Source: a phage
Strand: one strand, 5' to 3'
DNA: 64,000 bases
Sequence record: MZ956761.1
Shown here: in pieces, positions 8,968 to 57,916 of the stretch
Position numbering within the stretch: the stretch's first letter is position 1
How the letters are laid out: each line of letters begins with the position of its first letter
Made by a program: the position numbers and the translations under genes
Notes under the pieces: model-generated
What the model saw: only the letters and a program-made list of their open reading frames with translations
Databases searched by the model: none
What the model was told of the DNA's origin: nothing

Positions 8968-8984
8968 GGGCTTCGGCCCTTTTT
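8966..8984 (+). terminator. intrinsic terminator-like hairpin (UUCG loop)
   Basis: AAGGGC-TTCG-GCCCTT-TTT. Confidence 0.6.
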
Positions 8985-17321: not shown

Positions 17322-17337
17322 AGGGCTTCGGCCCTTT
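17322..17337 (+). terminator. UUCG-loop hairpin after gene 45
   Basis: AGGGC-TTCG-GCCCTT. Confidence 0.5.
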
Positions 17338-18895: not shown

Positions 18896-19264
18896 ATGAT
18901 TGAAATTACTCTTAAAAAACCTGAAGATTTTCTGAAAGTAAAAGAAACTTTGACTCGTATGGGAATTGCTAATAATAAAGATAAAGTTCTGTATCAGTCC
19001 TGCCACATTCTTCAGAAAAAAGGACTATACTATATCGTTCATTTTAAAGAAATGCTTCGTATGGATGGCCGTCAGGTTGAAATGACAGAAGAAGATGAAG
19101 TTCGTCGTGATTCGATTGCGTGGCTGTTAGAAGATTGGGGACTGATTGAAATCGTTCCTGGTCAAAGAACTTTTATGAAAGATTTAACCAATAACTTCCG
19201 AGTTATTTCTTTTAAACAAAAACATGAGTGGAAACTCGTTCCTAAATATACGATTGGTAATTAA
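18896..19264 (+). CDS. regA: translational repressor RegA
   Basis: 122 aa, coupled to gene 62. Confidence 0.85.
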   Translation: MIEITLKKPEDFLKVKETLTRMGIANNKDKVLYQSCHILQKKGLYYIVHFKEMLRMDGRQVEMTEEDEVRRDSIAWLLEDWGLIEIVPGQRTFMKDLTNNFRVISFKQKHEWKLVPKYTIGN

Positions 19265-19265
19265 T

Positions 19266-19487
19266 ATGACTGCTATAACTCCACAAGAATACATGGCGTC
19301 TCTTAAAGAAAAATATAATCTTTCTGCAACAGAAACACTTTTTGATTTACCAGAAAACCTCCAACTAAAATTTCAGGTAGAATTTCAAAAATTAGTTCAC
19401 CCAGAACAAAAACACTTTACCGCAGTGGTTAAGTCAATTAATGCAGATGGATTAACAATTTTTCACCGACAACTGGTATTAATTTAA
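19266..19487 (+). CDS. hypothetical protein (73 aa) between regA and gene 43
   Basis: ATG 19266 two nt after regA stop; followed by terminator hairpin. Confidence 0.5.
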   Translation: MTAITPQEYMASLKEKYNLSATETLFDLPENLQLKFQVEFQKLVHPEQKHFTAVVKSINADGLTIFHRQLVLI

Positions 19488-19489
19488 GC

Positions 19490-19510
19490 AAGGGGCTTCG
19501 GCCCCTTATT
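19490..19510 (+). terminator. intrinsic terminator-like hairpin
   Basis: AAGGGGC-TTCG-GCCCCTT-ATTT. Confidence 0.6.
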
Positions 19511-19527
19511 TGGAGTATAATATATCA

Positions 19528-19568
19528 AGAGCCTAATAACTCGGGCTATAAACTAAGGAATATCTATG
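19528..19568 (+). promoter_or_regulatory. gene 43 translational operator (autoregulatory hairpin plus RBS)
   Basis: AGCC-UAAUAACUC-GGGCU hairpin then AAGGAA RBS and ATG; resembles recalled T4 operator. Confidence 0.5.
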
Positions 19569-22262
19569 AAAGAATTTTATATCTCTATCGAAACAGTCGG
19601 AAATAACATTGTTGAGCGTTATATTGATGAAAATGGAAAGGAACGTACTCGTGAAGTAGAATATCTTCCGACTATGTTTAGGCATTGTAAGGAAGAGTCA
19701 AAATACAAAGACATTTATGGTAAAAACTGTGCTCCTCAAAAATTTCCATCAATGAAAGATGCACGAGACTGGATGAAGCGAATGGAAGACATCGGTCTCG
19801 AAGCTCTCGGTATGAACGATTTTAAACTCGCTTATATCAGTGATACATATGGTTCAGAAATTGTTTATGACCGAAAATTTGTTCGTGTAGCTAACTGTGA
19901 CATTGAGGTTACTGGTGATAAATTTCCTGACCCAATGAAAGCAGAATATGAAATTGATGCTATCACTCATTATGATTCAATTGACGACCGTTTTTACGTC
20001 TTTGATTTGTTGAATTCAATGTACGGTTCAGTATCAAAATGGGACGCAAAGTTAGCTGCTAAGCTTGACTGTGAAGGTGGTGATGAAGTTCCTCAAGAAA
20101 TTCTTGACCGAGTAATTTATATGCCATTTGATAATGAGCGTGATATGCTCATGGAATATATTAATCTCTGGGAACAGAAACGACCTGCTATTTTTACTGG
20201 TTGGAATATTGAGGGATTTGACGTTCCGTATATCATGAATCGCGTTAAAATGGTTCTCGGCGAACGTAGTATGAAACGCTTCTCTCCAATCGGTCGAGTA
20301 AAATCTAAACTAATTCAAAATATGTACGGTAGCAAAGAAATTTATTCTATTGATGGCGTATCTATTCTTGATTATTTAGATTTATACAAGAAGTTTGCAT
20401 TTACTAATTTGCCATCGTTCTCTTTGGAATCAGTTGCTCAACATGAAACCAAAAAAGGTAAATTGCCGTACGATGGTCCTATTAATAAACTTCGTGAGAC
20501 TAATCATCAACGATACATTAGTTATAACATCATTGACGTAGAATCAGTTCAAGCAATTGATAAAATTCGTGGGTTTATCGATCTAGTTTTAAGTATGTCT
20601 TATTACGCTAAAATGCCTTTTTCTGGTGTAATGAGTCCTATTAAAACTTGGGATGCTATTATTTTTAACTCACTGAAAGGTGAACATAAGGTTATTCCTC
20701 AACAAGGTTCGCACGTTAAACAGAGTTTTCCAGGTGCATTTGTGTTTGAACCTAAACCGATTGCTCGTCGATACATTATGAGTTTTGACTTGACGTCTCT
20801 GTATCCTAGCATTATTCGTCAGGTTAACATTAGTCCTGAGACTATTCGCGGGCAGTTTAAAGTTCATCCAATTCATGAATATATCGCAGGAACAGCTCCT
20901 AAGCCAAGTGATGAATATTCTTGCTCTCCGAATGGATGGATGTATGATAAGCACCAAGAAGGTATCATTCCAAAGGAAATCGCTAAAGTATTTTTCCAGC
21001 GTAAAGATTGGAAAAAGAAAATGTTCGCGGAAGAAATGAATGCCGAAGCTATTAAAAAGATTATTATGAAAGGTGCAGGGTCTTGCTCAACTAAACCAGA
21101 AGTTGAACGATATGTTAAGTTCAGTGATGATTTCTTAAACGAATTATCGAATTACACCGAATCTGTTCTTAACAGTCTGATTGAAGAATGTGAAAAAGCG
21201 GCTACACTTGCTAACACAAATCAGCTGAACCGTAAAATTCTTATTAACAGTCTTTATGGTGCTCTTGGTAATATTCATTTCCGCTACTATGATTTGCGAA
21301 ATGCTACTGCTATCACAATTTTCGGTCAAGTTGGTATTCAGTGGATTGCTCGTAAAATTAATGAATATCTGAATAAAGTATGTGGAACTAATGGTGAAGA
21401 TTTCATCGCAGCAGGTGATACTGATTCGGTATATGTTTGTGTAGATAAAGTAATTGAAAAAGTAGGTCTTGACCGCTTTAAAGAACAAAATGATTTAGTT
21501 GAATTCATGAATCAGTTTGGTAAGAAAAAGATGGAACCTATGATTGATGTTGCATATCGTGAGTTATGTGATTATATGAATAACCGCGAGCATCTGATGC
21601 ATATGGACCGTGAAGCTATTTCTTGCCCTCCGCTTGGTTCAAAGGGTGTTGGTGGATTTTGGAAAGCGAAAAAACGTTATGCTCTGAACGTTTATGATAT
21701 GGAAGATAAGCGATTTGCTGAACCGCATCTAAAAATCATGGGTATGGAAACTCAGCAGAGTTCAACACCAAAAGCAGTACAAGAAGCTCTCGAAGAAAGT
21801 ATTCGTCGTATTCTTCAGGAAGGTGAAGAGTCTGTCCAAGAATACTACAAGAACTTTGAGAAAGAATATCGTCAACTTGATTATAAAGTTATTGCTGAAG
21901 TAAAAACTGCGAACGATATAGCGAAATATGATGATAAAGGTTGGCCAGGATTTAAATGTCCGTTCCATATTCGTGGGGTGCTAACTTATCGTCGAGCTGT
22001 TAGTGGTTTAGGTGTAGCTCCAATTTTGGATGGAAATAAAGTAATGGTTCTTCCATTACGTGAAGGAAATCCATTTGGTGACAAGTGCATTGCTTGGCCG
22101 TCGGGCACAGAACTTCCAAAAGAAATTCGTTCTGACGTACTGTCTTGGATTGACTACTCAACTTTGTTCCAAAAATCGTTTGTTAAACCGCTTGCGGGCA
22201 TGTGTGAATCGGCTGGTATGGACTATGAAGAAAAAGCTTCGTTAGACTTCCTGTTTGGCTGA
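19566..22262 (+). CDS. 43: DNA polymerase gp43 (family B)
   Basis: 898 aa; exonuclease and polymerase motifs (KILINSLYGALGN, DTDS). Confidence 0.95.
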   Translation: MKEFYISIETVGNNIVERYIDENGKERTREVEYLPTMFRHCKEESKYKDIYGKNCAPQKFPSMKDARDWMKRMEDIGLEALGMNDFKLAYISDTYGSEIVYDRKFVRVANCDIEVTGDKFPDPMKAEYEIDAITHYDSIDDRFYVFDLLNSMYGSVSKWDAKLAAKLDCEGGDEVPQEILDRVIYMPFDNERDMLMEYINLWEQKRPAIFTGWNIEGFDVPYIMNRVKMVLGERSMKRFSPIGRVKSKLIQNMYGSKEIYSIDGVSILDYLDLYKKFAFTNLPSFSLESVAQHETKKGKLPYDGPINKLRETNHQRYISYNIIDVESVQAIDKIRGFIDLVLSMSYYAKMPFSGVMSPIKTWDAIIFNSLKGEHKVIPQQGSHVKQSFPGAFVFEPKPIARRYIMSFDLTSLYPSIIRQVNISPETIRGQFKVHPIHEYIAGTAPKPSDEYSCSPNGWMYDKHQEGIIPKEIAKVFFQRKDWKKKMFAEEMNAEAIKKIIMKGAGSCSTKPEVERYVKFSDDFLNELSNYTESVLNSLIEECEKAATLANTNQLNRKILINSLYGALGNIHFRYYDLRNATAITIFGQVGIQWIARKINEYLNKVCGTNGEDFIAAGDTDSVYVCVDKVIEKVGLDRFKEQNDLVEFMNQFGKKKMEPMIDVAYRELCDYMNNREHLMHMDREAISCPPLGSKGVGGFWKAKKRYALNVYDMEDKRFAEPHLKIMGMETQQSSTPKAVQEALEESIRRILQEGEESVQEYYKNFEKEYRQLDYKVIAEVKTANDIAKYDDKGWPGFKCPFHIRGVLTYRRAVSGLGVAPILDGNKVMVLPLREGNPFGDKCIAWPSGTELPKEIRSDVLSWIDYSTLFQKSFVKPLAGMCESAGMDYEEKASLDFLFG

Positions 22263-57898: not shown

Positions 57899-57916
57899 AG
57901 AGGGCCGAAGCCCTCT
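57899..57916 (-). promoter_or_regulatory. UUCG-loop hairpin between genes 37 and 38
   Basis: On - strand AGAGGGC-TTCG-GCCCTCT directly before the gp38 RBS; no U tract. Confidence 0.45.

Follow-up and report, generated by a model that had tools for sequence, protein, structure and literature searches.

The regA-43 junction and its intervening gene

The window that was analysed, i.e. the complete stretch of 64,000 nucleotides taken from phage sequence record MZ956761.1, is a segment of a Tequatrovirus genome. Between 19100 and 19700 its sequence agrees with that of Escherichia phage ADUt at 100% of the positions, and ime09, RB18, RB32 and RB33 are among the phages that reach 97-99%. The genes for the translational repressor RegA and for the DNA polymerase are separated in this region by a gap of 301 nt that holds, on the same strand as both neighbours, an additional gene, namely orf43.1, which closes the 45-44-62-regA replication-accessory cluster as its final cistron. 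A reading made from the sequence alone had placed the end of regA at 19264 and the start of gene 43 at 19566, with a gap of roughly 300 nt in between that contains a 73-aa open reading frame (19266-19487), a strong hairpin behind that frame, and an operator-like hairpin plus ribosome-binding site in front of gene 43. All of these elements are indeed present, and the refined layout is as follows.

18896-19264, + strand: regA, translational repressor; protein 100% identical to T4 RegA
19265-19487, + strand: 223-bp segment missing in T4, T2 and T6; edges GGTAATTAA and GGTATTAATTTAA
19266-19487, + strand: orf43.1; 73 aa, 8.45 kDa, pI 6.3; PF25760 and PHROG 3826
19490-19507, + strand: C(UUCG)G hairpin right after the orf43.1 stop; 7-bp stem, -12.1 kcal/mol
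19512-19521, + strand: GGAGTATAAT, with GGAG at 19512-19515 and a TATAAT -10-like hexamer at 19516-19521
19530-19547, + strand: gene 43 translational operator hairpin of 18 nt, with a 5-bp stem (arms 19530-19534 and 19543-19547) and the 8-nt loop AAUAACUC; identical to T4
19555-19559, + strand: Shine-Dalgarno sequence AAGGA of gene 43
19566-22262, + strand: gene 43, DNA polymerase (898 aa)

The 73 codons of orf43.1 run from the ATG at 19266 to the stop codon at 19485-19487, and the boundary of the 223-bp segment is ambiguous by the TTAA that is common to both edges.

The encoded protein is already known, that is, orf43.1 is a catalogued accessory gene of T4-like phages and not a new one. Residues 5-73 align with profile positions 1-69 of 69 of the Pfam family PF25760 'Phage RB18 ORF43.1 protein' (Phage_RB18_ORF43; E = 2.4e-29, 101.5 bits against a cutoff of 27), and the complete protein (positions 1-73 of 73) matches PHROG 3826 (E = 2.4e-37), the function class of which is given as unknown. 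The gene is annotated as 'gp43.1, uncharacterized protein ORF43.1, in regA3' region' in ime09 and as 'RB32ORF047c' in RB14. Miller and Jozwik reportedly described orf43.1 in the Journal of Bacteriology in 1990, under the title 'Sequence analysis of conserved regA and variable orf43.1 genes in T4-like bacteriophages'; a full-text literature search returned nothing relevant, and the name orf43.1 is the one in use in Pfam and GenBank. The genes called orf43.1 in RB18, RB51, RB32 and ime09 encode the same protein at the same length (the RB18 and ime09 copies are 96-99% identical to that of the window), and are found at the same position between regA and 43 with the same hairpin and operator downstream; nothing substantive differs beyond a few substitutions. 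A paralogue of orf43.1 was not found elsewhere in the 64-kb window.

With respect to the start codon, the program-made list of open reading frames gives a longer form of 87 aa, the in-frame ATG of which lies within regA at 19224, and the same start is used in the GenBank record of ADUt. We take 19266 to be the conserved start, because in other genera the homologous frames open immediately at the regA stop and because the Pfam model spans residues 5-73. The annotated start differs by record: the 73-aa form is given in ime09 and RB14, and the 87-aa form, which begins at an ATG inside regA in a different frame (19224-19487; 3125-3388 in L014, another of the records compared), is given in ADUt and several others. 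In one record (P0002) a protein of 127 aa is called, the frame of which does not end at the orf43.1 stop but continues through the spacer into the first part of gene 43.

Thirteen residues, including an FDL(P/S)E motif, are invariant between the window protein and six homologues with 32-49% identity to it, and the dN/dS values obtained for orf43.1 range from 0.11 to 0.46, where dS is a rough estimate from only some 70 codons. The AlphaFold2 model of the protein (mean pLDDT 86) consists of a helix at residues 6-16, a second helix at 30-44 and a beta-hairpin at 50-58/64-72. A Foldseek search against BFVD returned members of the family only, together with a protein from a T4-like phage of Edwardsiella (22% identity, TM-score 0.78). 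The dN/dS values below 1, the preservation of the frame in diverged homologues and the confident structure prediction together argue that orf43.1 is a genuine protein-coding gene.

Translation of orf43.1 and the control elements of gene 43

The junction between regA and orf43.1 has the form UAA-U-AUG, with the AUG one base past the regA stop. The same form is found at the 44/62 (UGA-U-AUG) and 62/regA (UAA-A-AUG) junctions, and other genera keep the regA/orf43.1 junction as UAAUAUG, UGAUAUG or an overlapping UAAUG. The AUG of orf43.1 has no more than a weak Shine-Dalgarno sequence, GGU, in front of it. Since the TAA-N-ATG arrangement matches the junctions of 44/62 and 62/regA, a translational coupling to regA is suggested, and termination-reinitiation would most likely account for the translation of orf43.1, which would form the final cistron on the prereplicative 45/44-62-regA mRNAs. 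The sites recognized by RegA are described as unstructured and A+U-rich, overlapping or lying just 5' of the AUG, and often having a UAA stop upstream (PMC3014915). The start region of orf43.1, GGUAAUUAAUAUGAC, fits this loose description, and the start codon is unpaired in the minimum free energy fold of 19240-19300; repression of orf43.1 by RegA may thus be considered a possibility.

The hairpin behind the orf43.1 stop has the sequence AAGGGGC-UUCG-GCCCCUU and is followed by AUUUGG. It was not called in a simple terminator scan, as the U-tract is interrupted (the tail being UUAUUUGG or AUUUGG), and the same hairpin sequence is annotated in phage SA20RB as a rho-independent terminator (TransTermHP/WebGeSTer). 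To label the element a terminator seems plausible, and judged from its sequence and position it probably constitutes the 3'-end, either as terminator or as stabiliser, of the 45-44-62-regA(-43.1) transcripts. Within the window, the core of the C(UUCG)G hairpin (GSCTTCGGSC) occurs nine times, against 0.06 occurrences expected by chance: at 8969, 12608, 17324, 19494, 43434, 48715 and 48947 on the + strand and at 57903 and 62619 on the - strand. The core at 17324 directly follows the stop of gene 45 in the same way as the core at 19494 follows that of orf43.1, and the hairpin would seem to punctuate T4-type transcripts throughout the genome.

Both the C(UUCG)G hairpin and the operator hairpin keep their pairing via compensatory changes, at 7 of the 12 pairs in a comparison of seven phages from several genera. 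The 91-nt region as a whole folds little better than shuffled sequence (z = -1.6), and a search of Rfam gave just a sub-threshold chance match, which fell on the hairpin. Between the two hairpins, none of the seven phages compared departs from TATAAT, and six of them have GGAG, with GGATGA in CkP1. GGAG is the motif that RegB cleaves; a promoter role for TATAAT and a RegB role for GGAG are inferred. A candidate MotA box for a gene 43 middle promoter, located inside the hairpin (GGCTTCG, 15 nt before TATAAT), was set aside because its spacing is outside the 11-13 nt at which MotA boxes are placed.

In the case of the gene 43 operator, the local hairpin matches the published 18-base hairpin-loop (PMC3014915). 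An operator was considered to be of the T4 type when an 18-nt hairpin, with a 5-bp stem and an 8-nt UAAC-containing loop, lies upstream of an adjoining Shine-Dalgarno sequence (PMC3014915), and the element in the window is of this type by its T4-identical sequence, its predicted fold and its covariation across genera. In fact, all elements of the T4 regA-43 region are shared with the window, i.e. the C(UUCG)G hairpin, GGAGTATAAT, the 18-nt operator with its UAAC-containing loop and the Shine-Dalgarno sequence, and from the hairpin through the AUG of gene 43 (the last 78 nt before that AUG) every base equals that of T4. The difference is that in T4 the hairpin directly follows the regA stop, whereas here 223 bp with orf43.1 intervene. 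Because hairpin, TATAAT, operator and ribosome-binding site are those of T4, the additional gene is not expected to alter the autoregulation of gene 43 by gp43. The sequence-only reading had proposed an insertion into a tightly regulated operon; the extra frame does lie in that operon, but the regulatory elements of gene 43 are left as in T4 and their function would not be disturbed by it.

Three states of the locus and their evolution

The spacer between regA and 43 in T4 (NC_000866) measures 78 nt, which bears out the statement of the sequence-only reading that it is much shorter than the one found here. Alignment with T4 reveals a single clean difference, namely the absence from T4 of the 223 bp at 19265-19487 that comprise the frame and its stop codon. 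At its upstream edge, GGTAATTAA is followed by the TATG with which the segment begins, and at its downstream edge the segment ends in GGTATTAATTTAA and is followed by GCAAGGGG, so that the edges carry short imperfect direct repeats; a deletion between these repeats yields the T4 junction, GGTAATTAAGCAAGGGG, exactly. The ORF is likewise missing from RB69 (Mosigvirus), in which the gap is 81 nt and the junction is similar to the T4 type.

Of the 505 records with a match of high DNA identity to the region, 501 fall into three states. The T4-type junction without the ORF was found in 254 records (including T2, T4, T6 and RB27), an ORF encoding a protein at least 80% identical to that of the window (allele A) in 178, and an ORF encoding a protein at least 90% identical to that of ECML-134 (allele B) in 69. 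In the records inspected, both alleles lie between regA and 43. The Tequatrovirus locus is thus polymorphic, with no ORF, allele A or allele B, and about half of the close relatives of T4 carry orf43.1. The sequence-only reading would have been refuted by the same ORF at this place in T4 and its close relatives; T4 itself lacks it, but many of those relatives carry it.

The distribution extends beyond the genus. The ORF lies between regA and 43 in ime09 and ECML-134 as well as in JS98 (Dhakavirus), IME523 (Kanagawavirus) and CkP1 (Karamvirus), and the order 45-44-62-regA-ORF-43 is found in three metagenomic contigs, the third of which ends just after the ORF so that only the regA side is visible. 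In SP18 (Gaprivervirus) a homologue is present at the matching map position, its placement being by map position alone. The allele B proteins (of ECML-134, RB68, teqdroes and others) and the homologues of JS98, IME523, CkP1 and SP18 belong to the same family as the window protein and have the 13 invariant residues in common, but are only 32-49% identical to it. In ECML-134, JS98, IME523 and CkP1 the gene starts at or near the regA stop in the same slot; in ECML-134, however, a 10-nt spacer that contains an AAGG of its own takes the place of TAA-N-ATG. In the ECML-134 record (L003) a direct repeat brackets allele B, with TAAGGCAAA upstream and TAAAGCAAAGGGG downstream (1443-1452 and 1687-1700). 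When 1.84 billion representative proteins were searched exhaustively with HMMER, only seven clusters were recovered, from which we conclude that the family is confined to T4-like phages of enterobacteria; a scan of IMG/VR yielded five loci only and nothing new.

The conservation of the flanks differs strongly from that of the gene in between. Among the window, T4 and ECML-134, no amino-acid difference is seen in RegA or in residues 1-400 of gp43 (100% identity; dS 0.1-0.2), and yet alleles A and B are only 45% identical, with saturated dS, despite these identical flanking proteins. The opposite pattern is found in two metagenomic contigs whose genomes are otherwise far more diverged from that of the window (gp43 identity 60% for L015 and 82% for L016), and whose orf43.1 copies (2501-2722 in L015 and 2501-2716 in L016) display a lower synonymous divergence than the flanking genes. 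For L015, the ORF product is 75% identical to that of the window with a dS of 0.83, compared to 2.5 for regA and 2.8 for gene 43; for L016, the identity is 73% and the dS values are 0.41, 1.15 and 2.0, respectively. The lower values for the ORF suggest that it was transferred laterally, as a cassette, between genera. In addition, the identities of RegA and gp43 to their window counterparts are discordant in several phages (86% and 63% in IME523, 75% and 82% in CkP1, 76% and 60% in L015). Taken together, the discordant identities, the divergence of the alleles and the dS patterns imply that the regA-43 spacer is a recombination or module boundary with an exchangeable cassette. This cassette is bracketed by the conserved 3' end of regA (AAATAYACRATWGGT...TAA) on one side and by the conserved hairpin plus GGAGTATAAT on the other, between which orf43.1 would have been swapped.

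As for the short form of the junction, T4, T2 and T6 most likely lost orf43.1 through a 223-bp deletion between the short repeats. Because the ORF occupies the same slot in several genera, we somewhat favor its ancestral presence, followed by loss in the T4/T2/T6 group and in RB69, as the more parsimonious reading. A gain by cassette transfer in some of the lineages is also possible, and the short form of RB69 and the lateral movement of the cassette point in that direction. Overall, the comparison argues that orf43.1 is an old, exchangeable and already named accessory cistron at a polymorphic locus, the presence of which would leave the regulation of gp43 unchanged (a reading to which we assign a probability of about 0.85).

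Alternative explanations and a possible role

One could argue that the frame is a chance one in a non-coding spacer in which only the RNA elements matter, considering that it is short (73 codons), belongs to an A+T-rich genome and has no known function. We regard this as highly improbable, since the frame is kept free of stops in more than 300 records and down to 32% identity, dN/dS is well below 1, related proteins have the same fold as the model (pLDDT 86) and curated families exist in both Pfam and PHROG. The sequence-only reading had put forward an insertion, and a strict form of this view is that mobile or foreign DNA was recently inserted into a T4-like short spacer in the lineage of the present phage. 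The short form of T4, T2, T6 and RB69, the signs of lateral exchange of the cassette (dS lower than that of the flanks in the comparisons with L015 and L016) and the short imperfect direct repeats at its edges are in line with such an event. Homologues that are 32-54% identical nevertheless fill the same slot in Tequatrovirus, Dhakavirus, Kanagawavirus, Karamvirus and three metagenomic contigs, and Gaprivervirus SP18 has one at the matching map position, which implies that the gene is old at the regA-43 site. Moreover, the family is absent outside the T4-like phages (seven clusters among 1.84 billion proteins), and the apparent translational coupling with regA is conserved across genera. Hallmarks of a mobile element were not detected either: Pfam shows no homing-endonuclease or transposase domain in the protein, and the edges carry only the short imperfect repeat GGTAATTAA / GGTATTAATTTAA. 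A recent insertion is consequently unlikely in our opinion; of the original proposal the absence of the ORF from T4 stands, while the gene itself turns out to be old, widespread and named, and to reside in the same slot in several genera.

The position of orf43.1 might indicate that it encodes a dedicated partner or modulator of RegA or gp43, i.e. a factor in the control of replication or translation. The strict synteny in every lineage examined and the apparent translational coupling to regA would be explained in that way. However, 100% identical RegA proteins and gp43 N-terminal halves occur alongside no ORF, allele A or allele B, and since they are identical in phages of all three states, RegA and gp43 neither need the ORF nor co-vary with it. 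Operator and ribosome-binding site are unchanged as well, and the fixed position may merely reflect vertical inheritance in a core cluster that is rarely rearranged, so that we consider a dedicated partnership improbable. The protein, predicted to consist of two helices followed by a beta-hairpin, is dispensable for the replication machinery itself, and our best guess is that it acts as a host- or defence-specific modulator. More specifically, it could be a host-range or counter-defence factor that is made early and is kept or lost depending on the hosts that are met. This idea, which we advance tentatively, agrees with the presence/absence polymorphism among near-identical genomes, the extreme divergence of the alleles between invariant flanks, the lateral exchange of the cassette between genera, the placement in an early/middle operon, and the fact that the protein is small, restricted to phages and without cellular homologues. 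On the other hand, comparison with known anti-phage defence and anti-defence proteins and with other named families gave no similarity in sequence or fold, and the overall dN/dS is below 1 with no sign of positive selection at such resolution. The complete proposition, in which orf43.1 is hypervariable, moves laterally and serves, from its place at the 3' end of the replication-accessory operon, in counter-defence or host specificity, is more doubtful; if true, it would explain why no copy, allele A or the 45%-identical allele B can be found beside identical RegA and polymerase.

A possible motif for the binding of gp45 or of the beta clamp, in the conserved FDLPE / Q-h-x-h-Q stretch, was rejected on inspection by eye, as the residues come in another order than in the C-terminal LDFLF of gp43 and as the segment is helical in the model.

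The annotation of the genome is little affected by the above, as orf43.1, its location and the RNA elements next to it had already been catalogued, and what remains of interest is the unusual variability of orf43.1. The hundreds of near-isogenic Tequatrovirus genomes that differ at this one slot, in three ways, represent a natural experiment, in which a role of orf43.1 in host range or anti-defence could readily be tested, and the regA-43 junction provides a well-defined module boundary for studies of recombination in T4-like phages. Two of the records have names that suggest related derivatives and differ at the locus: LR597660.1 (T4_ev151) carries the ORF and LR597657.1 (T4_ev240) has the T4-type junction.
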